Part shown: positions 871-20,195 of the stretch, one piece after another | How positions within the stretch are numbered: the stretch's first letter is position 1 | Layout of the letters: each line of letters opens with the position of its first letter | Assembly: GCF_004010195.1 (NCBI RefSeq) | Contig: NC_057718.1 | Span: 90,630,376 to 90,650,929 of the forward strand | Direction of reading: 5' to 3' | DNA: 20,554 nt | Source: Chiloscyllium plagiosum | Taxonomy: Eukaryota | The notes under the pieces: model-generated | Database searches by the model: none | What the model was told of the DNA's origin: nothing | The model's input: the letters and a program-made list of their open reading frames with translations, nothing else | Program-made: the position numbers and the translations under genes

Positions 871-1026
871 ACAAAAAAATGGGAACTGCAGATGCTGGAA
901 ATTAGAGTCATGATTAGAGTGGTGCTGGAAAAGCACAGCAGGTCAGGCGGCATCATTCTTGATGACAGGCTTTTGCCCGAAATGTTGATGTTCCTCCTCC
1001 TCAGATGCTGCCTGACCTGCTGTGCT
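871..1026. mobile_element. Degenerate fold-back Penelope-like terminal element
   Basis: agcacagcaggtcaggcggcatc is inverted as gatgctgcctgacctgctgtgct. A decayed hammerhead (ttgatgacaggcttttgcccgaaatgtt) lies between the arms. No TSD found. Confidence 0.7.
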
Positions 1027-1304
1027 AATACAGATTGCTATGTCAAACTAACATCACAGAGTATCACAGCATTATTGAGTTTAGCAAGAATTACAATAAA
1101 AGGTTACTTTAGTGAGACCAGTAGGATTTTGGTTCTCCACAATCTTTGCTCAAATAAGTCATATTAAATGGTTCTGAGATGAGAGGCAGGCAATATAGTT
1201 GTAATGACTCTAGACTAGTAATCCAGAACACCAGGCGTATGTCCCGGGGTTGAGGGTTCAGATACCACCATGACAGATTGCAGGAATTTGACTTCAACAG
1301 AAAA

Positions 1305-1526
1305 CAGAGCTGAAAATGTGTTGCTTGAAAAGCGCAGCAGGTCAGGCAGCATCCAAGGAGCAGGAGAATCGACGTTTCGGGCATGAGCCCTTCTTCAGGA
1401 ATGCTGAAGAAGCTCATGCCCGAAACGTCGATTCTCCTGCTCCTTGGATGCTGCCTGACCTGCTGCACGTTTCCAGCAACACATTTTCAGCTCTGATCTC
1501 CAGCATCTGCAGCCCTCACTTTCTCC
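1305..1526 (+). mobile_element. Fold-back Penelope-like terminal element with hammerhead motifs on both arms
   Basis: Arm 1305-1398 is the reverse complement of about 1404-1495, followed by an unpaired 31-nt tail ending ctcactttctcc. Direct repeat cttcaacagaaaa at 1292-1304 and 1526-1538. Confidence 0.85.
1371..1398 (-). ncRNA. Minimal type I hammerhead ribozyme core (predicted)
   Basis: The minus strand reads CUGAAGA-A-GGGC-UCAU-GCCC-GAAA-CGUC: both conserved boxes, a 4-bp helix II, palindromic ACGU in place of helix III, and a GUC cleavage triplet. Helix I is weak and activity is untested. Confidence 0.7.
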
Positions 1527-1860
1527 TTCAACAGAAAATAGTCTGGCATAAAAGCTAGTCTAATGGCAACCACCTAACAATGTTATAAAAGCCCATCTGG
1601 TTCCCTAATGACCCCTGAGGGAAGGAAAGCTGCTGCCCTTACCTGGTGTAGCCCACAAAACAGCATGGTTGACTCTTAATTGCCCCCTGAAATGGCCCTA
1701 GCCACTCATGTGGCAATTAGGGAAAAGCAATAAAGACTGACCCAGCTCACATCCCATGACCAAGTTAAAAATTACGCTGATAAGCCAAACAGCCTTTATT
1801 CCTGCTCTTAAATATCCTTCCTCCCTTCCATCGAGGACACCATACCATACGAGAATAAGA

Positions 1861-2333
1861 GACAAAAAAACCTGCAGATGCTGGAATCCAAAATAGACTG
1901 CAGGTGAAGAACACAGCAAGCCAGGCAGCATCGAGAGGTGGAGAAGTCAATGTTTCAGGTATAACCCTTCAGCTCCTGATTTAGATTAGATTAGATTCCC
2001 TACATTGTGGAAACAGGCCCCTCAGCCCAACAAGTCCACACTGACCCTCCGAAGAGTAACCCACCCAGACCCTCTGACTAATGCACCTAACACTATGGGC
2101 AATTTACCATGGCCAATTCACCTGATCTGCACATCTTCGGAGCACCTGGAAGAAACCCACACAGACATCGGGAGAACATGCAAACTCCACACAGACAGTC
2201 ACCAGGGGTGGAATTGAACCTGGGACCCTGGTGCTGTGAGGCAACAGTGCTAACCACTGAGCCATCGTGCCACCCTCTCTACCGCCTACTGCTGCCTGAT
2301 TTGCTGTGATCTTCAAGCCTCCTCCGTGTCTAC
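1861..2333 (-). mobile_element. Related fold-back subfamily, split by an HE1 SINE
   Basis: The left arm tagac...gaagaacacagcaagccaggcagca is inverted at 2290-2333 (tgctgcctgatttgctgtgatcttc...gtcta). Degenerate TSD acgagaataaga (1849-1860) / atgagaatgaga (2334-2345). Confidence 0.7.
1980..2275 (-). mobile_element. HE1-type (V-SINE) tRNA-derived SINE, near full length
   Basis: Minus strand shows A-box TGGCTCAGTGG, B-box GGTTCAATTCC, V-domain tgtgtggagtttgcatgttctcccgatgtctgtgtgggtttc, tail gggcctgtttccacaatgtagggaatc and (TAATC)n. Confidence 0.9.
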
Positions 2334-3508
2334 ATGAGAATGAGATACAAAAAGGAAGGCAGTTTGTTTTCATCTGTCTGACTTCAAGATGCTTTGGGAA
2401 GATTCGATGGTTGTAGTACAGATGCTAGGATTGAGCAATTACTGGCCTACGGTTTGAGCTGAAGCCCTCAAAGGCTGTTGAACCCTTGTAGTTCGACTCT
2501 TGCAGGTTGTCCAGAGGCTCACCTTCCGCTGAGCTGCCTGGCAGAGGCTGAACAACACAAATACTTAGCAGAACTCTTCATTACTCTGAAGGTGAAAGCT
2601 TGCCTCAGATGCTGTAACTCACTCCAATTCACGCCAGCCCTCGTGCTCACAATCTGGTGATGAAGCAACAGTTTGATCTACTTCATAATATGTTCTTTTG
2701 GGAGGCAGGGTGAAATGATCAGACAGCACACAGGCATGTAATTTCTTACATATTTATAACACAGGAACAGTAAAGCAGAGTCTGAACAGGGCAAGAAATT
2801 ATTTTTTTTTAAAATTCAACCATGTTATTAATTGTTTCGCTATCATAACGCAGTCTGACCTGAGGGACCTGGAAGCGTCGTTAATTAATTTGAAAATTAG
2901 CAGAACTTTTCATTTAAAAACAACTAACCAAACAAAGTGATTTGGGGGATTTTGCAAAAGCACATTGATTGAGAGGTCAGTTGTAGAGCTACAGTAGTTG
3001 GCAGAAAAGTTATTAAGGGAAGTTTATATCTTGGCTGCTTGCTCAATAGGTTTTATTGGGTGAAAGTTAATTTACAACTGATCAAAACAATCAAGGAAAT
3101 AGCAGATGGCTAATTTATGAATGATTTTGTTCTAGTTTCTCACCTATATGGTAGCAAGAAGAGGTGTCCCCCTTCAAATTTAGTTCTGTGGATTACATTG
3201 TTGAGAGATTAACTTTACTGCTGAAATGTTTTAATACTTATGTTCATTGAGCTGTTGTGTAATTTTGCTGCATTGGGGAGACCACATCTGGAGCACAGTT
3301 ATGGTCTCCTTGTTTATGAAAGAATTTAGTTACATTAAAAACAGTCACAGAAAGTTCATGTGACTGATTCCTGGTATGAGGGGATTATCCTGTGAGGATA
3401 GCTTCCTTAGAATGGGCCTGTATACTGTGGAGTTCAGAAGAATGAGTGGCAACCTTATTGAAAGGCATGGATCCTGAAGGAGATTCGACAGGACGTAGGC
3501 TGAGAGGA

Positions 3509-3795
3509 ATCATAGCATTCCTACATTGTGGAAACAAGGCCATTTGGCCCATTGAGTCCACACCAACCCCCTGAAGAGCATCCCACCCATTTCTAATCCA
3601 CCTAACCTCCACATCCCTGGACAATTTAGCATGGCTAATCCACCTAATCTGCACATCTTTGGACTGTGGGAGGAAACCAGAGGAAACTCACACAGACATG
3701 GGGAACTTGTGCAAATTCCACACAGGCTGTCATCCTAGGCTGGATTGAACCCAGGTCCCTGGTACTATGAGGCAACACTGCTCGCCAGTGTGCCA
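3509..3795 (-). mobile_element. HE1-type SINE
   Basis: Homologous to 1980-2275 (ctacattgtggaaacaaggc, ctgcacatctttggactgtgggaggaaacc, ttgaacccaggtccctgg). Confidence 0.85.
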
Positions 3796-3887
3796 GAGAC
3801 TAAAGCTAATGGGGGTCTAATGTAACTTAAAGGTGTCTCCCGTTTAAGATTGACAAAGAAGCATTTGTTTTTCCCTTGAGAGACATC

Positions 3888-4130
3888 AAGATACAAAAGT
3901 TTGAAAGCACCTACCAACAGATTTAAGAACAGCTTCCTCCTGGCTGTTTAGACTTATGAACGGAGTTAATCTTTCTCTGCACCTTCTCTGTAGCTGTAAC
4001 ACTTATATTCGCATTCTGTTCTATTAGCCCGATGTACTTATATAAGGTATAATTTGTCCGGATAGACACAAACTAAAACTTTTTACTGTATCTCGCTACA
4101 TGTGGCAATTATAAATCAAATCAAATCAAA
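3888..4130 (+). mobile_element. Rex1/Babar-type LINE 3' end
   Basis: Encodes RYKSLKAPTNRFKNSFL, ends in (AATCA)n, and is homologous to 7375-7628. Confidence 0.75.
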
Positions 4131-4976
4131 ACGAGCAGGATCATTAAATATTTTTAAAACCGAGGTAGGTAATATTTTTAACCAACGAAGGAGTCAAAGG
4201 GTAGGCAGGGAAACGGTGTTGAGGTCTAAAGGAGTTCAGTCACAATCTTATTGAATAGCAGGGCAGGCTTGAACGGCCTGGTCCTCATGCATTTGTTTGT
4301 CTCGTTTTACACATTGCTTTCTTGAAATTGGTGGGGCCACTTGTTGCTGTGCATAATGTCAACCGCTAATGTGAATCTCTGTAATGGCACTGTGTCTAGA
4401 GATGGCAGTAACATGAGGCAGCCCTACTTTGGGCACACATACATCTGACCACATCCTCTCAGTTGGCAGTATATTGAGTTTGACAGTTTTCATTTGAAAA
4501 CTAATGATCATATCTCCTGTGCACTGGCCCCTTGACATTTCTGACTCTGGCAGGAATAATCCCTATGGGATTGCTGGGGATTTGGGGTACATGATGCATT
4601 TGGTTCTGTGATAAGAGAGTTCCTCCTTTTCCAAAGCACACTTGTGTTCTTCCAGAAAGGAATTTTCCACGGATTGTGAAAAGTCTCTCTCCTTTCCTTG
4701 ACTTAAAATAAATGCTTGTGAGTACAAAGCCATATTTCATAGTATGTTTTCTTCGATAACTTGTATAATGAAGACATTCTAAAAACATACATATCTTCAC
4801 TTCACCAACACTCCAAAGTACACACATCAGCAAGTACTAAAAAGCAAAAGCAAAAGATTTGCAATTTATATTTACACTGTAAATCTCAAAATTCTTTATA
4901 GGTTTTGAATTTAGTCATTGCTGTGCATAGAAAAGACAGGAACCAATTTGCAGTTAGCAAGCTCCCTCGAATGGGC

Positions 4977-5080
4977 TTTTTTTTAACAGGATGTGGATGT
5001 CGCTGGCTGGGCCCAGCATTTATTGCCCATCCCTAGTTGCCCTTGAGAAGGTGGTGGTGAGCTACCTTTTTGAATTGTAG
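4977..5080 (-). mobile_element. Short LINE 3' tail (CR1/L2 group) nested in the Deu-SINE
   Basis: The minus strand reads ctcaccaccaccttctcaagggcaactagggatgggcaataaatgctgggcccagccagcgacatccacatcc followed by an A-run. Confidence 0.65.
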
Positions 5081-5304
5081 AATGTAATAATGACCAGGTA
5101 ATTTGTTTCTTGTGATGTTGATTGAGGGATTGATGTTGAGTAGGATATTGAGGATAACTCTCTTATGTTTCTTTGAAATGGACTCCCCCCGCCTTTTACA
5201 CCTGGAGCCGTGATTTAACATCTCATCTGAAAGATAGCAAGAATTTTTCAAGAATACAGCACTCCCTCTGTACTGTCCTGGAATATTGGCTGTAGTGTTT
5301 GGTG

Positions 5305-5497
5305 TTGAGAGAGTGTTGCTGGAAAAGTACAGCAGGTCAGGCAGCATGCGAGGAACAGGAAAATCGACGTTTTGTGATGAAGGGCTCCGACCCGAAACAT
5401 CGATTCTCCTGCTCCTCGGATGCTGCCTGACCTGCTGTGCGTTTCCAGCAACACACTCTCAACTCTGATCTCCAGCATCTGCAGACCTCACCGCCTC
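5305..5497 (+). mobile_element. Fold-back Penelope-like terminal element
   Basis: Inverted arms surround gtgatgaagggctccgacccgaaacatc. Perfect 15-bp TSD ctgtagtgtttggtg at 5290-5304 and 5498-5512. Unpaired tail of about 35 nt. Confidence 0.85.
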
Positions 5498-5717
5498 CTG
5501 TAGTGTTTGGTGATCAGATCCCAAAGTGGGACTTGAACTCAGCTTCTCTGAGGCACAGGTCCTGAGGTGTGGAATTCGAACAAGACTAGACAGGGCAAAC
5601 CTAGGAAGGATATCCCTGATGAACTGGAGAGTTCACAGTCTAAGGATGTAGGAAAGAATATTTTAGGACTGAGGGAAGGAGACATGTCTTCACCCAGTGA
5701 GCCACCCACTCCTGTAG

Positions 5718-5983
5718 TGCTAAATTGCCCCCTGGTGTCTAGGAATGTGTTGGCTAGGTGAATTAGTCATGGTAAATATGGGGTTAGGATAGGGGACTGG
5801 GTGTAGGTTTGCTCGCTGAGCTGGAAGCTGATCTTCCTGCTGAGCAAACCTTCATTCAGAACCTCAACCTGAGCTACAAATCTCCTCAAAAATAGGAGAC
5901 TGGGTTTGTGTGGGATGTCCTTCGGGGGATTGGTGCAGAATTGATGGGCCAAATGGCCTGTTTATGGACTGTAGGGATTCTAT
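5718..5983 (+). mobile_element. 3' half of an HE1-like SINE, interrupted at 5803-5891
   Basis: tgctaaattgccc...gatgggccaaatggcctgttt...ctgtagggattcta matches the HE1 body and tail. Confidence 0.7.
5803..5891 (+). mobile_element. 89-bp fold-back insertion of an unrelated family (probable Penelope-like 3' terminus)
   Basis: tgtaggtttgctc...gctggaag is inverted as cttcctgct-gagcaaaccttca, followed by a 37-nt unpaired tail. TSD ataggggactgggt (5789-5802) / ataggagactgggt (5892-5905). Confidence 0.7.
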
Positions 5984-7110
5984 CACAAGAGCCTTATGGT
6001 TGATAATATCCAGCAAATCAGCCACTACCTGAGAAAGCAGGGAATAGGCATTTAGTGACATGTCCAGTCTGCATCTTCATCCCTCCATTACAGCCCGGGT
6101 CACGTTTTGAAAATATGGCTCCCGGGGGCTTTGGATGCGCTGAGTTCACGATCAGCTTTTGATAAACACAGCTTCTCTCTAAATTTCACCCCTTCCATCT
6201 CCATCAGACAGCTAGATTTCCAATGCTCCCAGCTTTCCCATTGTCTCACAACATACTAGAGTTGATGCCAAATGGCAGGGGAAAATACGCTTGGGTGCAA
6301 ACGGCTTCCTTTTGTGTAGCGTACGTGTTTAAAATCGAGTGGGTGGAAGCTGTCCATTCATTTATGGGCAAAGAGTGCTGTTGCAAAACTCTAAGCCCCT
6401 CGTATCCCTGAATCCTGGATGAATGAAGTCTCTAAGCTGCAGTCCCTGTCACTGTGAGCACTCGCAGCACCTCGAGGGTCGGTTTGCTCTCAACACAGGT
6501 TACTTTTGGTCACCTGTGACCCAATCACAGATCGCTGATCTTGTCCAGATACTCCTGGAGCTCTCTGCTGCTGTCAATTGAAACAAGAGTGACCTCATTC
6601 CGAGAACAATCGTAGCAAAAATATTTTTTTTCTCTCTCTCGCTCACTCGCGACTCAGCAAGAGCTATGTGAATCAGGACCTTTGTTGTGATGAAAAATAA
6701 ATAAATAAGTCGTTCCGTGAAATTTGTCTGGCTGACATTTTCCATCTCAAAATAATGCCCTTTCTCTGAGTCTAATCTGAGACGAGGGTTGCAGCTATGA
6801 GATCTGGAGACCTTGGCACAAAGGCCTCTCTGTGTGTGTTTCAACTTCCAGGGTCTTTTTTTTCCATCTGAAGTTTCCATTGTACTGTGCCAGGCTAATG
6901 TGTGCTGAATGGTTTCTCACCAAGCCCTGTAATCCATGGAAAACAAAATTCCAGCAGGATACAGCAGAGTGATTTTTAAAAATGAAAACATTTTGCACGG
7001 GCGTCCTGTGTAATTGTTGCAGTTGTTATTTTCAAAATCAGGGCAGACACTGTTGCGGTTCCAGGGACCTGCCTTTCTAGGTGTGCTGCCTTGTGCCCAC
7101 TTGCACCATC

Positions 7111-7628
7111 AGGCCTGAGGAGGCTAAAGAAATTCGGCACATCCACCAACTTTTACAGATGCATCATAGAAAGCATTCTATCTGGATGCATCATGGCCTG
7201 GTACGGCATTGCTCTGCCCAGGATCATAGGGGAACCTCAGAGATATGTGAACACAGCCCAGACCATCGCACAAACTAACCTTCCATCCATTGATCCCATC
7301 TACATTTCTCATTGCCACGGAAATATCATCAAAGACCCCCTCGTACCCTAGTTATAATCTCTTCCAGTCAGGGAGAAGATACAAAAGCTTAATCATACAC
7401 AGATTCAAAAACAGCTTCTTCCCCGCTGTTATTAGACTTTGCAAATTTCAAATGTCATGTTGATCTTGTTTTTTGTACACCTTCTTGGCAGCTGTAACTC
7501 TGTGTTCCTCGCTCAGTTCTATCACCCTGTGATCTTTTGAGTCTTTGTGTGTTATGATCTGCTGTACACAAAACAAAACTCTTCACTTAGGTATGTGTGA
7601 CAATAATGAATCAAATCAAATCGAATCA
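7111..7628 (+). mobile_element. Rex1/Babar-type LINE, ORF C-terminus and 3'UTR (degenerate)
   Basis: LRRLKKFG..TNFYRCIIESILSGCIMAWYG...LPSIDPIY...IIKDP in ORF 7091..7351 is characteristic of Rex1 ORFs. Ends in an (AATCA)n tail. Confidence 0.85.
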
Positions 7629-7629
7629 G

Positions 7630-7775
7630 TCATTGGTAGTAGAGGTGATCAATGATTTTGGATGGGCACTTGAAAAAAATAAACTTGTGGGCCTACTGGG
7701 AGAGAGCAGGGGAATAGCACTCATTCTAGGTACAGCCAGCACGGACTCTATGAGCTCATCCTGTGCTATAGTGAC
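7630..7775 (+). mobile_element. Highly decayed CR1-like 3' tail
   Basis: ttggatgggcacttga...gggagagagcagggga...agccagcacggac...ctgtgctatag resembles shark CR1 3'UTRs. Confidence 0.45.
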
Positions 7776-9224
7776 CCTAAGGGTCAGCATTTTCAAACAC
7801 CTGTGATCGTGTGTGTGAGTGGACATTGTAACTCACGCAATCAGTTGGTGTGTCAGTCTTTCAATAGCTTTTTTAAAAAGGGTAATGGTGGGGAATGGGG
7901 AGGGTGGAGGGCCAGAAACAGGGAAAATGGTCCAACTAACTCGACCTTAAGGAAGATGAGCTCGTGTCAGGGACTGGGAGAGTGGCAGAATCAAATTTTC
8001 AATGTCCACACATGCTGGGGCACGTTAGTGTTTAGCAGTTGAGAGATCCATTGCCCATTGATGTGGAATCAGGTATTGAAAAGGAAGAGCAAAACTGTGA
8101 GGTGCTCATGCAGTGGTGGGTAAGTTTCCATCACTTAAGTTGATTGGCCGTGAGCACAAGACTTCTTTCCATACCTTCATAAGCTCAGTGTGACATTCCC
8201 AGGACAATATTGTTTGCATCTCTAACTGTCCTTGAACTGAGCCGAGTTGAGTTAGCAACTGTATCAACAGAATCAGTTCGAATTTAATAAAGAAACTGTT
8301 CTTAAAATCTATCTTTCCAGATGGTGTATCTATGAATTCTTGGCTGAGTTCCAAGAATGAGAAACGTCCTTAGCTTACAGCAGGCACCTTTGACTCAGCA
8401 GGAGTCAGGCTTTGTTTGATTGATGTTTTTATTGCCATGTAGTAAGTTATTCTTCCCTTGGAAGCGGTTTTTCAATGCAGGTGTAGTTACTCGCACAAGA
8501 TTAAGAGGTGTGAAGTGAACACGTTTAGTGGTTGATTGACATTTCATGAGCTGAGCTGTTTTTCTGTTTATTGTTTCGGGCTTGCCAATGGCTCGTCCGC
8601 TCTGACGGTGATGAATACTGGGAGAGGGCAGTGTGGCGAATGCATGGGCATCGGTGGGTGAATGGGTGTGTCAGAGTGAGGTTGAGGGACTGACATTCAA
8701 CTGGTCAATGTCCCAAAGTAATGTTTCTCCCCTCTGTTGCCACCTAACGCACCCCCTGCCAGGCCAAAATGGGAATTGCAGAGAGGGGCCTCTTCAGCAG
8801 AGATGGATTTGCAGGAACATTTCTGACTCCTACTTTCTGTCACTCTCACAGAAATCTTACCTTAATATGCCTGCACATATAAATGTACTTCACTCCCTAA
8901 TGAGAGCATTTATTTCCCCTTCTTTTCCAGCCCTACAGGTGTATTATCTACAGGCGTAAATTCACCTTCAATAGCAGTGCTTACAAAGCCCAACATTGCC
9001 TCCCAACTACCTCACATAAAACCCCCTCCCATTCCCAATCCGCACTTTCAATCCAAACTATCAATCTCCCTCTCACTGCACTTTGGAAAGGCCTCAATGA
9101 TCATTTTGTATCTCTTGATAGGCTCCTCTTTCTTCAAACTCCCTTGTCCCCATGACCACAGGCTTACTCAGGCCACTGAAGTCCTTACCAACCCCAAATC
9201 AAACTTCAAACATCACGTTGAATT

Positions 9225-9476
9225 AACCAAATTGCTTGCTTCCATCTCTGCTCCATTGCCCATTTGTCCAAGAATGACCACACTTAGGAAAGTGGCTGCA
9301 GAGTGCTTTGAGATGTCCTGTGACCATTAAGAACATTTTCCTTGGTGTTCTGTCACCACACGGAAACCTTTCCCAATTCAATCCTTCAGTACTCCTCCAG
9401 GGATTTTGTGTCTAAATCCATGGGACCCACAGCCTTCTGATTCAGAGACCTGAGCATTACCATTGAAGCAAGACTC
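9225..9476. mobile_element. Decayed Deu-SINE-like remnants (tail on +, tRNA head on -)
   Basis: tgaccacactt...tggctgcagagtgctttgagatgtcctg on the plus strand, and acccacagccttctgattcagag...accattga as an antisense head. Confidence 0.4.
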
Positions 9477-10055
9477 ACAATTTCCACATTCTTCTATCCC
9501 TTTGTAAAGCCAAATGTGGTCAACAAACTGGAATCTTCCCTGTCATGGTATCTCATAAACCCGATTAATGGAGGAGTAAGCCTTTCTGATCATGCACATG
9601 TATGTACTAATGGTGTCAATGTACTTTTATGGTTCTGAATCAGTTGAATACCACGACGGCTTCTCACATTAAATTGGAGCCTTCACATTGAATTTCCATT
9701 TGTTAAAAGAAGTTCAATAGTACATCGCGAAAACTCAGTCCCAGGCACAGAATTATACCGAGTTGTCATCCTAAATTATGCTATCTTCTGCTTAATTGGG
9801 TCTATGCTTCAAATAAGACCTGACTCATTATTTACTGACTGTTTAATGTCGCATTATGTACACTGACTGTCAGTACCCAGCTGTAAACTGAGGATTACAG
9901 CTCAATAAATCTGTGGTCATAACAACATTAATCTTCTTGTGTAAATCAAGGTCGTGGTGTACAGTGAAAATCTGCATCTTCATCTTAACAGAGAAAGAGA
10001 CACGCCTTCCCAATCCAGATCGAGTTGAAACCATGCCATCCAACAGTGACAGCTA

Positions 10056-10213
10056 CAGAGGAACCTCGATTAGTTGAAGGACACAGGCGGGGAATTGAAT
10101 TCCGGATAACCGAATGCCGGATAACATAGTTTAGCCGAGTACTGGGACCTTGCGATCTTGCCGGATAATCTGATATTCGGATAATCGAATGCTGGATATT
10201 CAAAGTTCCTCTG
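10056..10213. mobile_element. 158-bp Tc1/mariner-pogo (Tigger-like) MITE
   Basis: TA|CAGAGGAAC...GTTCCTCTG|TA: TA duplication at 10054-10055 and 10214-10215, a 9-bp perfect TIR that extends imperfectly, and five internal (C/T)GGATA(A/T)Y repeats. Confidence 0.8.
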
Positions 10214-10249
10214 TATCACTCATGTACAGATGAGTCAAGGTCCAGTGAG

Positions 10250-11042
10250 CAGATAAATGTGAGGTTACCCACTTTGATGGCATAAACAGGAAAGCAGATT
10301 ATTATCCGAATGGTGGCAGTCGAGGAAAAGGCGAGGTGAATCAAGACCTGGGTGTCATGGTGGAACAGTCGCTGAAGGTTAGCATGTCGGTGCTAATGGC
10401 ATGCTGGCCTTCATAGTGAGAGGATATAAGTATCAGAGTGGGGGTGGCTTGCTGCAGTTATATCGGGCCATGGTGAGGCCACACCTTGTGTATTGTGTAC
10501 AGTTTTGAACTCCTAGTCTGAGGAAGGTCACTTTTGTTATTGAGGGAGTCCAGCGAAGGTTTAACAGCCTGATTCCCGGGATGGCAGGACTGACATATGA
10601 GGAAAGACTGGATTGACTGGGCTTGTACTCACTGGAATTGAGAAGAATGAGGGGGATTTCATAGAAACAAATAAAATCCTGATGGAACTGGACGGGCTAG
10701 ATGCAGGAAGAATGTTCCCGATGTTGGGGAAGTCCAGAACTCGGGGTAACTGTCTAAGAATAAGGAGTAAGCTATTCAGGACTGAGATGAGGAACAATTT
10801 CTTCATTCAGAGAGTTGTGAACCTGTGGAATTCTGGCCCACAGAAAGCTGTTGGGGCCAATTTGTTAAATATATTCAGGAGGGAGCTGGTCATGGCCTTT
10901 GCAGCTAAAGGGGTCAAGGGGTATGGGGAGAAAGCGGGAGGGGATACTGAGATTGCATAATCAGCCATGACCATATTGAATGGTGGGGCAGTCTTGAAGG
11001 GCCGAATGGCCTGCTCCTGCACCTATTCTGTATGCTCCTATG
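10250..11042 (+). mobile_element. CR1 (HER1-type) LINE, 5'-truncated ORF2 C-terminus and 3'UTR
   Basis: Encodes fragments DLGV.V, ANGMLAFI, VRPHL.YCVQF, GVQRRF..LIPGM, SRTRGNCLRIRSKLFRTEMRNNFFIQRVVNLWNS. 3'UTR gggccgaatggcctgctcctgc with a tatg-type tail. Frameshifted. Confidence 0.92.
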
Positions 11043-11344
11043 AATGCTGATGGGGGGACAGCACTGGGATCTGTACAAGGATTGGGTGGAAGGCTTGGCT
11101 TGAATGTGATGCCCTCACGATCAAAGAGCCTGTGAAAATTTGCCATCTTGCATTAAATAGCTTACCCTCTGAGTAAAGTGGGGTGATGATTTGGATCGAG
11201 GAAGGATAATGGATATGTTAGGGACAACTTGTGCCCATTTGACCCCAACAGCAAGACCTATTCCCTCCTAGCGAAACCCTAATCAATATCACGTGTGAGG
11301 TAGGTACTGCCATGCACTGCTGCAGGAAATCAGATTCTTGAGTA

Positions 11345-11836
11345 TTGCTGGAAAAAGACACATTTTATTGAAGCTTTTTGACCTCCTCTCATAACAGCAA
11401 ATTCACACGAAATACCAATGTACAGGGAAAACAACAATTTATACAATAATAGGAAAGGAGAGTACTGATTGATTGGCAGTCAGACTGTATTCTTCAAAGA
11501 ACAGGGCCCTGTCTATTAATGTATGTAGCTTCCAGCACACACGTGTCTTTGTAGACAGAACACTTGTCTCCACCTGTTTCAACTCAACATAACAGGTGGC
11601 AGCCATTTCCTAATTCATTTCTCAGGGCACTTCCATGAATAACTGGGAGTCAGCCTGCCCTGTTTTAAAATTCAAACAAAGCTCGGCAGTGAACTGTCAC
11701 TTGCCATCAACTGGCACATTCTCCGTGGCAGTGCCTGAATCAATCCAAGTCCATTCGCCAACCAGTCAGTACTCTCCTCTCATTCAGAATGAATGTTGTT
11801 TTCCGTTTCCTTCGGTATCGAGACTTGTCCTGATGA
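11345..11836. mobile_element. Old long inverted-repeat element, probably Penelope-like
   Basis: 11456-11477 and 11757-11778 are reverse complements at 20/22. gaaaacaaca / tgttgttttc and atacc / ggtat extend the arms. CTGATGA at 11830-11836. Confidence 0.55.
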
Positions 11837-12261
11837 TATTCAAAGAGTGTTTGTGGATTTTGTTAATACCATGACCGATGCTGTCTTGTCAGGGGTATAG
11901 ATAGTCAATAGATGGCAGGCTTGCAGGAAGCCTAGGTAGGGGAGAGATGTGGACAACCTGGGGTGTGTAGTAGGACAGTGTGTGATCAGAATTTATGTCA
12001 TTAATACAATCGCTATTTGGAATGATGGCGGTTGAGGAGGTGAAGGGGTTGGAGGGAGTGGCAGGGTGTTGCTGATCAAACAGTAATGTACTGGACTTCA
12101 TCTGAGAGATTACAAAGGTACATATCTTCTGAGGCCCGATGTGTCTCAACTGGTGGGGGAGATGTGCAAGGAAACAGTGAGTTCCACTCCCAGTATTCTG
12201 ATGTTTGCTGGAACAGGTTTCCATATCCTGCTCACTGCGCTACAGAAAAATAAGCATCTCT

Positions 12262-12599
12262 CTCTCTCTCTATCTCTCTCTACATGACATGCCTCTCACT
12301 GTGGAGAAAGTGAGGACTGCAGATGCTGGAGATCAGAGCTTAAAAATGTGTTGCTGGAAAAGTGCAGCAGGTCCGGCAACATCAAAGGAACAGGAGAATT
12401 GACGTTTCGGGCATAAGCCCTTCTTCAGGACTCTCTCTCTATCTCTCTCTACATGACATGCCTCTCACTGTGGAGAAAGTGAGGACTGCAGATGCTGGAG
12501 ATCAGAGCTTAAGAATGTGTTGCTGGAAAAGTGCAGCAGGTCCGGCAGCATCAAAGGAACAGGAGAATTGACGTTTCGGGCATAAGCCCTTCTTCCGGA
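12262..12599. repeat. 169-bp tandem duplication (41 bp flank + 128 bp element arm)
   Basis: 12262-12430 and 12431-12599 differ at three positions by eye and share private variants (gtccggca, ggagaattgacg). Confidence 0.9.
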
Positions 12600-12697
12600 A
12601 ATGCCCTGAAGAAGGGCTTCTGCCCGAAACATCGATTCTCCTGCTCCTTTGATGCTGCCTGACCTGCTGCGCTTTTCCAGCAACACATTTTTAAGCT
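12303..12697 (-). mobile_element. Fold-back Penelope-like terminal element with a duplicated long arm
   Basis: Long arms start ggagaaagtgaggactgcag at 12303 and 12472, and the inverted short arm spans about 12606-12697. TSD catgcctctcactgt at 12288-12302, 12457-12471 and 12698-12712. Confidence 0.85.
12401..12428 (-). ncRNA. Minimal type I hammerhead ribozyme core (predicted)
   Basis: The minus strand reads CUGAAGA-A-GGGC-UUAU-GCCC-GAAA-CGUC. Confidence 0.7.
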
Positions 12698-13562
12698 CAT
12701 GCCTCTCACTGTATCACACATTTGCATCTTTCTGAAAACAATGTCATTGCACAAACAACAAGGCATTGAACGAGGTCTCTTCAGGGTAGTGTGGTCGCCT
12801 CTCTGCATAGCGGTTGGTATGGGTGACAGCTGCAGTTCAAGATGTTACCTGTGCTGTTTTACCAAATTAGACCAATCATCAATGACACAGGAAGGAATAG
12901 AGCAGCAATTCCCAAAGGCGTGCTTGTTTTCCGTACAGATTCCAGCATCTGCAGTAATTTGTTCCCAAGGACACGCATTGTGCATTGGCATTAAAGCTGC
13001 ACGGGAGATTCGGTCAGTCATCCGTGGTGAGCGAGTCATCCAGCTCCCTCAGTGGCCTGTGAAATGTGAGGCTACTGCTGTTGTTGAATGCTCTTGTGGT
13101 TTTAACACTCACTGCACTCGCCCGGATGTGCCGCACAGCCAAGACTTGGGGCGATGTCAGCACAGCACGGGGCAAGTCAACAGTTTTAGGGCGATTGCAG
13201 AAGCGTCTTGTTATTCATGGAGAATCTCATTCTGAGTTCTGATGAGGTGATCTTTATTAAACATGAGCTCCCACAGAGATTAGTCAGGCTTCTCCAATCT
13301 GTCGGTGATCTCAGCACAGAGCCCTGCGTTAACTGTGAGGCTCTTATAGTGTCCGAATCTTGTGTAGGAGTTAGTCGCGTGCACTCCCTCCTACTCTCTT
13401 TTCCAGCCTTTCCCATTTAACATGGGGTCACCCACAGGGAAGGTGATCACCCTGCAAACCTAGCAGCATTTTTGAATTTGGTGGGTGATTTTCTAGCCAC
13501 ATGCCCTTTCTATCCCTGAACCCTCTTCAGCAACCCTGCTATTAGATTGAAATCCTATTCAG

Positions 13563-13686
13563 GAGAAAGTGAGGTCTGCAGATGCTGGAGATCAGAGCTG
13601 GAAATGTGTTGCTGGAAAAGCGCAGCAGGTCAGGCAGCATCCAGGGAACAGGAGAATCGATGTTTCGGGCATAAGCCCTTCTTCAG
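13563..13686 (-). mobile_element. Single-arm copy of the hammerhead-bearing element
   Basis: One arm only, whose minus strand starts at CTGAAGAAGGGCTTATGCCCGAAACATC. Perfect 14-bp TSD gaaatcctattcag at 13549-13562 and 13687-13700. Confidence 0.85.
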
Positions 13687-13700
13687 GAAATCCTATTCAG

Positions 13701-14058
13701 CTTTGCTATTAGATCTAAGCCCTTCATTAGTCTTGCTGGAAGATCTAGACCCTTGGGTGGCCTTGCTGATAGGTCTAAGCCCTTGGTCGGCCTTGCTGAT
13801 TGGTCTAAGCCGTACATTGGGCTCGCTGATAGGTCTAAACCCTTGGTAGTCCTGCTGATCGATCTAAGCCCTTGGTCGGCCTTGCTGATAGGTCTAAGCC
13901 CTTGATCGGCCTTGCTGATAGGTCTAAGCCCTTGGTTGGTCTTGCTGATAGGTCTAAGCCCTTGGTTGGACTTGCTGATAGGTCTAGCCCTTGGTTGGAC
14001 TTGCTGATAGGTCTAAGCCCTTGGTTGGACTTGCTGATAGATCTAAGCCCTTCATCAA
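13701..14058. repeat. 30-bp minisatellite, about 12 units, consensus CTTGCTGATAGGTCTAAGCCCTTGGTYGGN
   Basis: The ctaagccc-like core recurs every 29-31 nt. Units are more degenerate at the left end. Confidence 0.92.
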
Positions 14059-14067
14059 TGCCTTTAC

Positions 14068-14150
14068 TGCCATCCTTACATGGTCTGGCCTACATGTGAC
14101 TCCAGACCCACAGCAGTGAATTTGTCTCTTAAACTGCTCTCTGGGCAATT
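14068..14150 (+). mobile_element. Internal fragment of the SINE family seen at 1181-1771
   Basis: ctgccatccttacatggtctggcctacatgtgactccagacccacagca...ctcttaaactgc...gggcaatt parallels 1630-1720. Confidence 0.7.
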
Positions 14151-14607
14151 CATAGCATCACGGAGTCATAGAATCCTACAGCGTGGAGACAGGCCCTTCG
14201 GCCCAAACTAGTCCATGCCGACCAAAATGTCCATCCATGCTAATCCCATTTCCTTGCACTTGGCCCATATTCTTCTAAACTTTTCCTATCTATATATTTG
14301 TCCAAATGCCTTTTAAATACCTGTTAATGTACCTGCCTCAATCACTTCCACTGGCAGCTCATTCCATACCACCCTTGGTTTAAAAATGTTGCCCCTCAGG
14401 TTCCCTTTTCTTCTTTCCCCTCTAACATTAAACTGATGCCCTCTTGTCCTTGATTCCCCAACACTGGGAAAAAGATTGAGTGCATTCACCCTATCCATAC
14501 CTCTCATGGTCTTATGCACTTCTATATGGTCCCCTCTCAGTCTCCTACACTTTGAAGAAAAATGTCTTGGGTCCTGGCAACATCCTTGTAAATTTCTTCT
14601 GCACTCT
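14151..14607 (-). mobile_element. CR1 (HER1-type) LINE 3' end
   Basis: ORF 14313..14519 (KTMRGMDRVN...ESRTRGHQFNVRG...RVVWNELP) plus 3'UTR gggccgaagggcctgtctccacgctgtaggattctatgac. Confidence 0.9.
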
Positions 14608-15369
14608 TATGACTCTATGGTCAAGCTAATGGCTGGCTTGACTCAATAGATGGAAGTCCAGACTTAACTGCTCACAGGCCTAATAGTAAAAAAAAGAATT
14701 CCATTGCCAAACAGCATCATAACGGTAACCAATGAAAGACTGGATCAGTAAAGGAGTTAACTTATGCACAATAACCCATTGAACCAACAAAGCTATTGTT
14801 CTCAAAAAGAATTGAATCCTTCCAAATTTACCAATGAACGAGATGCATCCAAAACAGTATGGATGTAAAAACCAATCCGTAGGTTATCGAGATAGATTTT
14901 TCTGCTTATGAGGGAGTCCATTTCATGCTCTGCTACAAAAATAACCAATGAAAGGATAATCAGGCAGCTTCAACACCAATTATTGACCAGCAGATATAGA
15001 CAAAACCCCCCCTGGAATGTGTGCAAAGATGTGACTCTCGGACTCTTGTCAGGGATTAGTGAGACAGCGTGTGTTTTGCCTAAAATCTCATTTGCCTTAA
15101 AATCCTCCTGCATTCGTTGGGAGGGAGGCGTCGGTAGAAATCAAGATGTTACTCAGATTTTAGAGCTATGGGGTGAGCTTAAGTGTAAGACCAGACATGG
15201 GAGGCCATTAAGCCCATCTGAGTCATGCTGGAATACTAGCCTATGATTCTTCGTATTCCCTCCCCACACACCCCCCACACACCCCGAGTCTGTGTTCTGC
15301 TCCAGACCCACAACCAGAGGGGATGTCTGCACCACTCTAATTCTGGACCCTTGTCTTGTCAGGGATTAC

Positions 15370-15548
15370 CGTGCTGTCTTGCATGTTTTGCACTTTCTTG
15401 TGCACTTTATGCTGCCCTGTGTCTGACTGTACTCTCATGTAGTCTGTGTGTTCATGTAGCACCTTGGTCCTGGAGGAACGCTGTCTCATTTTTATTGTAC
15501 CAGCTGTATATGGCAGAAACGACAAATAGTTACTGTACTCTACTTGAG
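15370..15548 (+). mobile_element. LINE 3'UTR, Rex1-like
   Basis: tgtagcaccttggtcctggaggaacgctgtctcattt...tgtaccagctgtatatgg...gacaaata...tacttga is recalled as a fish Rex1-type 3' end. No ORF support in this window. Confidence 0.5.
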
Positions 15549-16544
15549 CAGCTGTAATTATAATCGCTATATCATTGGTCAGCTTCCGAGGCCCCATGCT
15601 CTGGGACTTGTTGCCTCTGTCTTATTACCTCTCTACCCGACTTTTCACCTTTAAAACTGACCACACCGTTGGTTTTCGGGCCTAACAATCCCTGTGCGTC
15701 CCATTTTTATCCTGAGAAAAGCCCTGGGATCCATGCGAGTAGCAAGCTGTTGTTGGATCATTTCTGGGAATCTCGGGGCTAGATTTGTCCACAAGTGTGG
15801 GAGCCCGAGGGTCAGGTGCCCACTCTAGGTGGGTTTTGCAGAGGGTGGCCAATTAATGGGTTGCCTTGGTGTTCGCCAGCCAACAATGGCGGTGCCCACC
15901 AGCAGGAGGCCCAAGCAGCAGAAGGGTCAGGGTGGAGAAGGTGAGAGCATGATAAGAGGAATAGTCCCCTACCATTTCTATGTAACTCCCCTCGACCTTT
16001 CCCTGCCTTCTGTGTGGACTCCTTGCACTTAGTCAGTGAACAATTCTGTCATTCCGACAGATCGAAGTGCTTTTCTGACAGCAGTGCGGAAATGTGCTTC
16101 TCTTTTGCATGTGACGTGGAGTTCTTCTGCTGACATCAACGCTTTACGTCACTGTCCCCTTATATCCAATCTCCCTGTCAGGAAAGGTGGTCTGAAATTG
16201 AGATATGGAGCGATGAGTCCAACTTAATGTGTCATTGAGTTTGAGAATGGGCTGTCACCTTTTGTAGCAAAGATTGGAGCCAGTTCAGAGGCATTTCTGG
16301 ACTGAGTCCAGTTTCCACAAGAGGTTGCCTGATGCATAAAGATGAGTTGGTAAAAGGGAGTAACTGAGAACTGGGTCAAACCCAGGACTAAAACAGAATC
16401 TACTTGGTGGAGTAATTGGACAGAGTTGACTTTCCTTTTCCCTCAATCATTATTAACCCCTTCCTTACTTTCCATACTTCCAAACTGTTAGAAAGCAGTT
16501 ACTTGTTTTTGTTGTTTAGTCTATGCTTGTTTGTGTCATCAAAT

Positions 16545-16705
16545 TATGGAAAATAGGAGCAGGAATATACCATTCAGCCCTTCAAGCCTGGCCCACCAGT
16601 CAATGTGACCCTGGCTGACCATCCAACTCAGTCCCCTCTTCCCACTTTCTCCCATATTCCTTCATCCCTTTAGTCTTTTGGAACTGTATCTAATGTGCCA
16701 TTGAA
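16545..16705 (-). mobile_element. Decayed CR1 3'UTR
   Basis: aataggagcaggaatataccattcagcccttcaagcctg...ggctga...ttctcccatattccttcatcccttta is the antisense homolog of 10900-11030. Confidence 0.75.
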
Positions 16706-17185
16706 ACCACCATGGTAGCCCTCAAAGATTTAAAGTGATTTCTGCGAATAAAATCCAACAACACAGATGTTTTTTTCTCACAATGATTCACCCACTAACA
16801 AAGTTGACTTCTCAGACACCACACAGTGCGATGGCTTTGTGACGTTACTATTGAGGAGAAAGGCTGGGATATTTCCACTTTTGGGTCATGGAGGTTTTGG
16901 ACCCGAGGAGGATCTGTAACTGATTCACATCAGCTGAAGTGTGCCAACTCTTCAGTTTGGAACGTTGCATTCCTCGACATAAAGGGAAGGAGAGTCCAGT
17001 CACAGGTTTAGGGTCCAGTCAGCTGAAAGCTTAACCAACAACCGTAGAACAGTTTAACACTGAATGCCAGGAGGAGCAACATGATTTTGAGATGAGGCTA
17101 AGGATTGGAAAATGAGGGCAAGAATTTTCCAATTGAAGCGTTACCAGTTTTTGAGCTAGTGCTGTTTGGCAGACACACAGATAGT

Positions 17186-18784
17186 GAGTCATAGAGTCAT
17201 ATAGCACAGAAACAGACCCTTCGGTCCAACTGGCCCATGCTGACCATTATCCCAAACTAAACTAGCCTCACCTGTCTGCTCCTGGCCCGTATCCCTCCAA
17301 ACCTTTCCTAGTTATGTACTTATCAAAATGTATTTTATACATTGTAATTGTGCCCAGATCTACCACTTCCTCAGGAAGTTCATTCCACACATGGACCACC
17401 CTCTGTGTAAAATATTTGCCTCTTATATCTTTTTAAAATCTTTCTCCTCTCACTGTACCCCCCCTAGTCTTGAAACTCCCCATCCTAGGGAAAAGATAAC
17501 TACCATTAACTCTATCTACACCTTTCATTATTTTATGAACTTCTATCAGATCGCCTCTCAACCTCTTAAGCTCCAGTGAAAAAAGTCCCAGCCCATCCAG
17601 CCTTTCTTTATAACTCAAACCTTCCATACCCGGCAACATCCTGATAAATGTCTTCTGAACCCTCCCAAGCTTAATAATACCCTTCCTAAAACAGGGCATC
17701 CGGAATTGGAAACAGTAATCCAGAAGAGGCCTCACCAATGTCCTGTACAACCTCAACATGACTTACCAACTCCTATACTCAAAGGACTGAACAATACCCA
17801 AGGCCCTACCATTAACTGTATAAGCCCTACCCTTGTTTGCTGTATCAAAATAGAATACCTCACATTTATCCAGATTGAACTTCATCTGCCATTTTTCAGC
17901 CCATTGATCCATTTGATCAAGTTCCTTTTGTCACCTTAGAAAACCTTATTCGCTGTCTACAATGGCACCAATTTTGGTGTTGTCCGCATGCCTTCTATAT
18001 TCTCATCCGAATCATTTACATAAATGGCAAACAAAAGAGGACCCAGAACTGATCCCTGTGGATGACCGCTGGTCACAGGCCTCCAGTCTGAAAAGCAACC
18101 TTCCACTATTACTCTCTGTCTCCTGCCATAAAGCCAATCATGTATCCAATTAGCAAGCCCACCCAGAATCCCATCTGACCTAACTTTACTAATTAGTCTA
18201 CCATGTGGAACCTTGTCAAAGGCTTTACTAAAATCCAATAAACAATGTTTACCACTCTACCATCATCAACCTTTTTGGTAACTTCCTCAAAATAACTCAA
18301 CCAAGTTTGTGAGACGCGATTTTCCTTAATCAATTTTTGCCTCTCTAAATGTCCATAAACCCTATCTTGTATAACCACCTCCAACAATTTACCCACAACC
18401 AAAGTCAGATTCACAGGTCTGTAGTTTCCTGGTTTCTCCTTGCAACCTTTCTTAAACAAAGGCACAACATTAGGAGAAAGTGAGGTCTGCAGATGCTGGA
18501 GATTAGAGTCGAGAGTGTGGTGCTGGAAAAGCACAGCAGGTCAGGCAGCATCCAAGGAGCAGAAAAATCGATATTTCAGGCATAAGCCCTTTATCAGGAA
18601 GGAGTTATGCCCAAAAGTCCTGATGAAGGCCTAATGCCCGAAACATAAATTCTCCTGCTCCTCGGATGCTGCCTGACCTGCTATGCTTTTCCAGCACCAC
18701 ACTCTCGAAAGGTACAACATGAGCCAGCCTCCAGTCATCAGGTACCTCACCCGTAGTTAGAGATGATGGACATATCTCTGTAAG
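17186..18784 (-). mobile_element. CR1 (HER1-type) LINE, degenerate reverse-transcriptase ORF2 and 3'UTR
   Basis: Motifs [57 protein letters not shown] and LYRTLVRPLLDYC occur in three disjoint ORFs, with frameshifts and internal deletions. (TATGACTC)n tail. Confidence 0.95.
18474..18707 (-). mobile_element. Fold-back Penelope-like terminal element nested in CR1 ORF2
   Basis: Inverted arms with an unpaired tail of about 36 nt. TSD aaaggcacaacattag (18458-18473) / aaaggtacaacatgag (18708-18723), 14/16. Confidence 0.85.
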
Positions 18785-19130: not shown

Positions 19131-19419
19131 GAATAGAATCCCTATAGTGTGGAAACAGGTCCTTCAGCCCACACCAATCCTCCAAGGAATAACCCACCCA
19201 GACCCATTCCCCTACATTTGGCCCAGACTAATGCACCTAGCCTTGACATCCCTGAACACTATGGGCAATTTAGCATGGCCAATTCACCTAACCTGCACAT
19301 CTTTGGACTGTGGGAGGAAACCCACACAGACTGAATGTACAAACTCCACACAGACAGTCGCCTGAGGCTGGAGTCGAACCCTGGGTCCCTGGTGCTAACC
19401 ACTGAGCCACCGTGTTGCC
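19131..19419 (-). mobile_element. HE1-type SINE
   Basis: The minus-strand head reads ggcaacacggtggctcagtggttagcacc...ggttcgactcc, and the body and tail are homologous to 1980-2275. Confidence 0.9.
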
Positions 19420-19841
19420 TTTCCTTGAAATTTCTCGAGATAGCACAGCAACAAAGTAGGAATTTGTTGGCATGGGAGATGGCTTTCCTTTTTCAATCTG
19501 AAGATTCAAATGCTCCTGAACGATTATCACAAATGCTTCGGGAGTTAGAGGAGGCAGCTAAAGCGAATAGTGTCGGGTTTGGGTTTGATGAAACTCATTT
19601 CCCATCAAAGGAATTGGCTGGTGCAGCATTTTATACCATTGTGAAGTGCACAGGCTGTGTGCTGTGTTGGAAATTGGTGCCTTAGAGTCAGCAGACCCTT
19701 CAATGCCTTATTCTCACATTTCAAAATTATTTGAAGTGATAACCCTTATTGGTAATAATGCCATCGAGTTAAATCTTCATATTTGCTAATGCCTGAGCTG
19801 TAAACTTGGAATTTCACCATTTGGGCTGACATTTTAAGAAT

Positions 19842-19992: not shown

Positions 19993-20195
19993 GCTATTAG
20001 AGTGGGTGAGTTCTAAACCCCAGGTCCTACAAAGTAGGGTCTCCCTCCCTCCTCTAACCTTAATTAAGAGTCCACAGACGTGCCACAAAAAGAGGGTCTA
20101 AGGAAGTTTAGTTCGAAGAGTGAGGCTTCAGCTCAGGAATCTTTGACAAGGAGGTTGAGTGAAGTAATTACACCACAGTTGAAGAAGGTGAAGAC

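Follow-up and report, generated by a model that had tools for sequence, protein, structure and literature searches.

Insertion geometry of the palindromic hammerhead units

A 20,554-nucleotide stretch of the Chiloscyllium plagiosum genome (contig NC_057718.1, positions 90,630,376 to 90,650,929; hereafter the window) carries copies of a ~125-nt unit in which a minimal type I hammerhead ribozyme motif comes first and a pyrimidine-rich stretch comes last. Twelve arms of the main family, each representing part of this unit, were aligned, and diverged relatives are located at 1861 and 5803 (Table 1). A head-to-head inverted, 5′-truncated copy is present at 871, 1305, 1861, 5305, 12472, and 18474, and by analogy at 5803; the arm at 13563–13686 is solitary. 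An initial annotation of the window had read the palindromes as Penelope-like element (PLE) insertions with an inverted arm and a tail, and we found a hammerhead motif, a head-to-head inverted truncated copy, a 30–38 nt tail, and a target-site duplication (TSD), in agreement with that reading. The units are best explained as dead, 5′-truncated end pieces of a Penelope-like retrotransposon with an endonuclease, each piece comprising a pseudo-long terminal repeat (pLTR) module and its minimal hammerhead; this putative membership rests on these structural features.

In all five palindromes that could be measured, a tail of 30–38 nt is located on one side, and six copies (the solo arm included) are enclosed by TSDs of 13–16 bp without poly(A). 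The TSDs at 1305, 5305, 12472, and 13563–13686 are exact. As a control for chance, ungapped repeat scores between the flanks of different copies did not exceed 9 in 90 pairings. The two flanks of the same locus scored 10–15 at seven of the ten loci tested; 12927 scored 7, and no repeat was found at 871 or 11335. The insertion geometry is thus genuine and well above chance. Two TSDs are supported independently. Copy 5803 lies within a short interspersed element (SINE) and retains no part of the ribozyme, and its TSD word occurs singly in a paralogous SINE (19196–19214) that represents a paralogous empty site. Copy 18474 interrupts a long interspersed element (LINE) whose flanks read ...WRLAHVVP and NVVPLFKKG..., the overlap corresponding to the duplicated residues; the motif in this VVP region is presumably single in intact LINEs. 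SINE and LINE hosts were recognized from repeats and Pfam, without family-level naming.

The TSD and tail lengths of the initial annotation agree with ours to within 1 nt at 1305, 5305, 5803, 12472, and 18474. The palindrome it had placed at 12303 does have a TSD and a tail but lies at 12472–12697, and at 1861 neither the TSD nor the tail (~25–32 nt) is measurable because the 16/18 imperfect repeat overlaps the A-rich end of the element. Copy 871 had been set apart from the others, and it indeed lacks a TSD and ~60 nt of its short arm. Four main-family copies are similar in size (193–234 bp), and the copies are old, with the arms of the four that have a TSD differing by 8–12%.

Table 1. Units, arms, and associated features in the window (positions from the first nucleotide of the window; +/− numbers at inner ends are relative to CUGA)
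Feature	Span	Arms (strand)	TSD	Tail	Other
Copy 871	870–1026	tail-bearing ~870–954 (−), stops at +45; short 955–1026 (+), begins at −4	none		short arm contains the entire hammerhead
Copy 1305	1292–1538	short 1305–1403 (−), to −5; long 1404–1525 (+)	1292–1304 / 1526–1538, 13 bp	1496–1525, 30 nt	
Copy 1861 (diverged family)	1851–2353	long ~1862–1975 (−); short 2276–2331 (+)			imperfect repeat 1851–1868 / 2336–2353; SINE 1982–2275 in center
Copy 5305	5290–5512	short 5305–5372 (−), inner end at GAAA (+21); long ~5374–5497 (+)	5290–5304 / 5498–5512, 15 bp	5463–5497, 35 nt	
Copy 5803 (second family)	5789–5905		5789–5802 / 5892–5905, 14 bp, 1 mismatch	5854–5891, 38 nt	
Tandem duplication, 169 bp	12262–12599				younger; long arm with 41 bp of adjoining host flank; ends at palindrome center
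Copy 12472	12457–12712	long 12472–12600 (−); short 12605–12697 (+)	12457–12471 / 12698–12712, 15 bp	12472–12505, 34 nt	
Solo arm	13549–13700	tail-bearing 13563–13686 (−)	13549–13562 / 13687–13700, 14 bp		minimal hammerhead core 13686–13659
Copy 18474	18458–18723	long 18474–18600 (−); short 18620–18707 (+)	18458–18473 / 18708–18723, 16 bp, 2 mismatches	18474–18509, 36 nt	host, LINE reverse transcriptase frame; extra 22-nt hammerhead piece 18598–18619 in center, ends in GTC

Most inner arm ends lie near the 5′ edge of the hammerhead motif

The predicted hammerhead is composed of CUGANGA, a bulged A, a 4-bp stem II, a CG palindrome, and GAAACGUC; its candidate stem I appears weak, with U·U in most copies. 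Among the variants listed, the common non-CpG changes in the ribozyme sit in loop II and at the N of CUGANGA. An Rfam scan gave 13 matches, all far under the gathering threshold, of which 12 were microRNA-hairpin models on the palindromes; the hammerhead models did not generate any match.

Nine of 11 inner arm ends are located between −5 and +1 of CUGA, with the remaining two at +21 and +45. None coincides with the GUC cleavage site (+28), and hammerhead cleavage was rejected as the origin of the center. The earlier proposal that the center sits at the 5′ edge of the ribozyme rather than at GUC is therefore borne out by one arm or both in each of the five main-family palindromes, but the edge is not absolute: 31,293 reads of X19, one of the read runs described below, continue upstream of the hammerhead with shared sequence (agreement 0.62), so that longer copies are common. 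The consensus of the reads extending upstream is TCATTCC at −6 to 0 of CUGA. Transcription initiators have the consensus YYANWYY, which TCATTCC fits with the A at −4, although a motif of this length carries little weight. Arms probably halt at this edge because the transcript starts there, a point that is less settled; a stall of the reverse transcriptase (RT) at a structured or protein-bound ribozyme fits equally well. In the available text on D. virilis, the Penelope transcript is described as starting well upstream of the hammerhead (PMC4209133, PMC2377424).

The centers themselves are blunt, contain a few extra bases, or have 2–3 letters in common, the read junction classes with shared letters being pooled by the aligner and hence over-counted. 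All seven junctions listed for the window differ from one another. The 22-nt piece at the center of 18474, a single decayed case, could represent a template jump onto the self-cleaved 5′ product. RNA folding placed a GGAUGCUG/CAGCAUCU stem in four of five minimum-energy folds, where it brackets the second start of synthesis proposed below, but since the fold energies are no better than those of shuffled sequences (z 0.32, −1.98, −0.13, 1.14, and −0.38), the stem gives no support.

Read depth fits clustered short-arm ends, and read junctions are diverse

Four read runs from three organisms were aligned to the solo copy at 13563–13686; none contained a read record bridging it. Peak depth in X19 was ~100,600 (1,934 million letters), from which 1.6–2.6 × 10^5 arms are estimated for an assumed genome size of 3–5 Gb. 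The tail end is sharp, with 23,618 and 9,394 X19 reads stopping at 13561 and 13562, respectively, and unrelated flanks beyond (agreement 0.33). Depth is nearly flat across the tail (~55,000–58,000 over 13569–13594), climbs within 13595–13620, and has reached ~95,000 by 13608–13620. The short arms in the window terminate at 13593–13599 in the same coordinates, and the step in depth fits clustered short-arm ends. The broad distribution of these ends that the initial annotation had allowed for is thus not what the depth profile displays, though the profile is not a clean histogram. The ratio of tail to core depth (~0.55) was dropped as a gauge of the short-arm share, as edge effects are equally large.

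Reads joining opposite strands were evaluated against a reference that ends at 13689, where longer arms are collapsed. In the best 13 rows, one side is always at 13685–13689 and the other ranges from 13597 to 13689. The largest opposite-strand class contains 188 of 138,188 X19 reads (0.14%). With over 700 joint rows in total, none of the junctions thus recurs widely; Illumina sequencing may under-read hairpins. Together with the seven differing junctions in the window, this speaks against identical junctions being common to many copies. An arm of tail length, aligned only to 13597, was joined to an arm ending at the hammerhead edge (13686/88/89) in 172 of 887 X19 reads (13 rows listed), and the first arm of this class lacks the hammerhead even when up to 40 unaligned letters are allowed.

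A further 26 X19 reads, with a joint from 13595 to 13561, contain the 35-nt tail twice in tandem; such reads are present in the other three runs as well. They suggest that the polymerase can cease copying on reaching the second start and begin anew at the first.

Twin priming at two RNA starts as the proposed origin of the palindromes

These results are accounted for best, and in our judgment with moderate probability, by twin priming from both nicks followed by head-to-head joining of the two cDNAs. Both target strands would be nicked 13–16 nt apart, as the TSDs suggest, leaving two 3′-OH ends. One end would prime at a distal start on the RNA, pairing with 1–2 template bases (CU), and generate the tail-bearing arm; the other would prime at a second site 30–38 nt upstream and generate the short arm. 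The tail would then correspond to the distance between two starts of synthesis, and under twin priming from both nicks the end of the short arm would be a start of synthesis rather than a stop. Both cDNAs, to judge from the observed geometry, would extend toward the 5′ end of the RNA; most would halt where the hammerhead begins, which is probably the transcript start, and some would halt earlier. Their ends would be joined blunt, by microhomology of 2–3 nt, or with a few bases added, and such variable joining would explain why every center differs. A solo arm flanked by the same TSD, as at 13563, would result if the second end were joined but did not prime.

Several properties of the copies bear on this proposal. 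The 3′ ends of both arms point outward and each adjoins a copy of the TSD, as expected of two cDNAs primed from two nicked ends. A single TSD encloses both arms, and alignment reveals a subfamily-diagnostic segment common to both arms in all four main-family copies with a TSD. The short arm of 871 contains ~49 nt that are absent from its long arm, and that of 1305 contains 5 nt that are absent from its long arm and match the upstream read consensus. Because the short arm holds sequence that the long arm does not, simple fold-back is excluded for these two copies. The end-joining-like centers favor twin priming, as do, over fold-back, primer-like matches of 1–2 nt at both outer ends.

The outer-end matches emerged from the flanks. 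In four of five main-family copies, CT is the first dinucleotide of the TSD when it is read from the tail end (binomial p ~7e-5), and CT would be the next two template bases; the bias could instead reflect an endonuclease preference. At the short-arm end, the TSD starts with a base identical to the next one in the template in four of five (chance ~0.02). A G is located 18 nt outside the tail end in four of five window copies (p ~0.01 per position, with three positions inspected), and the corresponding G at 13545 appears in all eight flank-consensus strings (four runs, two positions), which are otherwise AT-rich; copies running past the tail may contribute part of this read signal. The TSD sequences, initially described as unrelated to each other, therefore do share features, namely CT beside the tail and G 18 nt out.

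A number of observations weigh against twin priming or dilute the evidence for it. Copies 5305, 12472, and 18474 fit fold-back equally well, and a later deletion may have altered copy 871. By whole-arm distance, the nearest neighbor of a short arm is its partner in only two of five cases (871 and 5305), and the short arm of 12472 is nearest to its partner's duplicate; the partner signal is blurred by the age of the copies. Subfamily indels break alignments at 13597–13606 and add to the depth step, and the pile-up at 13597 may in part be an alignment break. No RT or GIY-YIG frame was recognized among the window open reading frames (ORFs; six pieces, Pfam), and a 40-aa frame taken from the unit returned nothing in a protein search. 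Finally, the twin-priming model for L1 is itself described, in the available text, as needing validation (PMC10760644).

The principal alternative, which we regard as unlikely, is fold-back or self-priming, in which a single cDNA, or else an antisense template, would fold onto itself close to the hammerhead and serve as its own template. On this reading, synthesis ends 30–38 nt short where RT, RNA, or endonuclease covers the primer end, or resolution occurs there; this is the footprint or ruler idea of the initial annotation and the 'EN-mediated resolution' of Craig 2021. Fold-back is already in print (PMC3846280, PMC8557442), the antisense template being that of Arkhipova 2013. It readily provides both arms from one source and the hairpin-like centers with short spacers in 1305 and 12472, and the 1-nt matches at short-arm ends could be end-joining microhomology. 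It is contradicted by the short arms of 871 and 1305 and by the 13597-to-13686/88/89 reads, all of which hold sequence missing from the tail-bearing arm, and by work on PAc (Poseidon, Anolis carolinensis), for which the available text places the start sites in vitro at both tail borders (PMC11167929).

The mechanistic ruler that had been suggested to set the short-arm end is retained here only in modified form. The evidence favors the start of a second reverse transcription over a footprint or template-switch stop, and the end wobbles by 6–7 nt and follows subfamily sequence, but a protein could still space the two starts. Along these lines, a single dimeric RT-endonuclease might speculatively be the true ruler, coupling nick spacing to the spacing of RNA starts at a site chosen by a motif in which AG marks the first nick and a G lies 18 nt farther out. 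TSD and tail lengths increase together in four main-family palindromes (13/30, 15/34, 15/35, and 16/36; r 0.98, n=4, permutation p 0.083); the correlation falls to 0.53 when 5803 is added and is partly built in by shared-base assignment, and it is a lead only. Were such a coupled ruler true, the ~10^5 arms would constitute a natural record settling the inverted ends and tails of Penelope.

It is improbable that the pairs were produced by two separate insertions at the same site, or by later recombination or gene conversion. PLEs are reported to be able to nick their own pLTR (PMC11167929, in part), and later rearrangement did occur at 12262–12599 and 1861, but one TSD surrounds both arms, subfamily marks are common to them in 4/4 copies, and the orientation is always head to head. 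At 12262–12599, the stretch 12262–12430 arose later, by duplication of the palindrome's long arm at 12472. Only three of 169 positions separate the duplicates, each differs from the short arm of 12472 at 7–8 of 94, and they have in common five substitutions absent from that short arm; the duplication, which includes host flank, thus postdates the insertion. It breaks once within a CT microsatellite and once at the palindrome center, and may represent repair of a hairpin-induced break.

A preformed palindromic mini-element (miniature inverted-repeat transposable element [MITE]-like or a non-autonomous hairpin RNA) copied as a unit would suit the very high copy number (depth ~100,000 in 1.93 Gb read) and similar sizes of the four main-family copies, but is very improbable and largely refuted by the differing window centers, a largest junction class of 0.14% of reads, asymmetric ends, variable TSD length, and the existence of solo arms and longer copies. 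A MITE or fold-back DNA transposon was likewise rejected (one-sided tail, TSD of 13–16, no shared center).

Other elements in the window

A 30-bp minisatellite (11.7 copies, 13703–14052) directly follows the TSD of the solo copy; its unit has TAAGCCCTT in common with hammerhead stem II, and its first units are similar to the left flank at 13537–13547. A tail-only stub of a related subfamily lies at 12927–12954, where the flanking 7-bp repeat is within chance. A decayed ~500-bp fold-back of another family occupies 11335–11845 (arms 11412–11477 and 11757–11818), with CTGATGA near its right outer end, a center far upstream of that motif, and no TSD found.

The LINE fragment that hosts copy 18474 extends over 17186–18775 on the minus strand. 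The piece flanking the copy matched Pfam RVT_1 with E 0.07 and the next piece with E 2e-12; the flank gave no significant match in the PDB. Another LINE-like 3′ piece is located at ~10240–11030, and a short MITE-like element, whose inverted ends are imperfect and whose interior contains 15-bp repeats, at 10052–10215. In the segment 19840–20554, two direct repeats of ~50 bp lie at 19840 and 19950. An open frame that contains CxxC pairs and has no Pfam match starts after them, at 20163, and the segment resembles a LINE 5′ end with its ORF1.

Comparison with known systems

The following comparisons draw on the portions of the cited papers that were available. Scans with the unit pattern gave no hits in metagenomes, viral sequences, or GTDB, and 120 metagenome loci obtained with a shorter pattern, none matching the unit over more than 38 nt, were discarded as chance. 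Non-LTR retrozymes and the units described here are non-coding, PLE-derived, and equipped with a type I hammerhead, but retrozymes form head-to-tail arrays whereas the units here are head-to-head or solo (10.64898/2026.07.22.740005); the only tandem in the window (12262–12599) includes host flank and postdates insertion, and a retrozyme was rejected. Cervera and de la Pena 2014 described paired minimal hammerheads on opposite strands, 100–700 bp apart. The metazoan PLE minimal hammerheads and the present motif have in common the predicted core, a bulge after position 9, G10.1–C11.1, and a palindromic 15.2–16.2, and differ in that stem II here is 4 bp and stem I weak (PMC4209133).

The arrangement is that of a published PLE insertion unit, and the geometry as such is not new. 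Arkhipova 2013 reported a 31-bp tail, an inverted pLTR that is 37 bp shorter, and TSDs of 8–10 bp (PMC3846280), and Craig 2021 a 30–40-bp tail at one end with an adjoining inverted truncated copy (PMC8557442); a 34-bp repeat is found at the ORF ends of D. virilis Penelope (PMC2377424). As in endonuclease-bearing PLEs of the Pen2a_Av type, a head-to-head inverted truncated copy, an extension at one end, and a single TSD are present here. The TSDs of 13–16 bp are longer than the 8–10 bp of the Adineta endonuclease-bearing PLEs, and, in contrast to Pen2a_Av, the units lack an internal ORF and the short arm may outreach the long arm at the center.

L1 twin priming resembles our proposal in its second target priming, microhomology joining, and TSDs of <20 bp, and differs in that poly(A) is absent here and the position of the second start on the RNA is fixed (PMC10760644). 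Unlike in L1, the arms usually overlap in sequence and form a true palindrome, which would require two templates or strand displacement.

The closest biochemical parallel is provided by Frangieh 2024, in which purified PAc cuts and extends both strands. Reverse transcription begins at two internal RNA start sites, and the tail is the stretch between them; PAc is predicted to be a dimer, hammerhead cleavage is dispensable, and later steps were left unvalidated (PMC11167929). In PAc and in the units here, the start sites are downstream of the hammerhead and the cleavage site is not an end. They lie 85–92 nt past the hammerhead cut in PAc and at ~60–66 and 96–98 nt here. PAc prefers AT-rich ATT sites, with no primer-template homology reported in the available sections, whereas 1–2 nt matches and a CT...C bias are seen here. 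Those sections offer no account of the origin of the inverted arm.

The mechanism that generates PLE inverted repeats and one-sided tails has been called undefined (PMC8557442). Twin priming was not found as an explanation of PLE inverted arms in the literature searched, though Arkhipova 2006 and Evgen'ev and Arkhipova 2005 may apply it. The present data add evidence for the short arm being a second cDNA from a second start site. A twin-priming model with two fixed sites on the RNA would combine tail, inversion, TSD, and variable center, and the family is abundant enough for this to be tested by counting.

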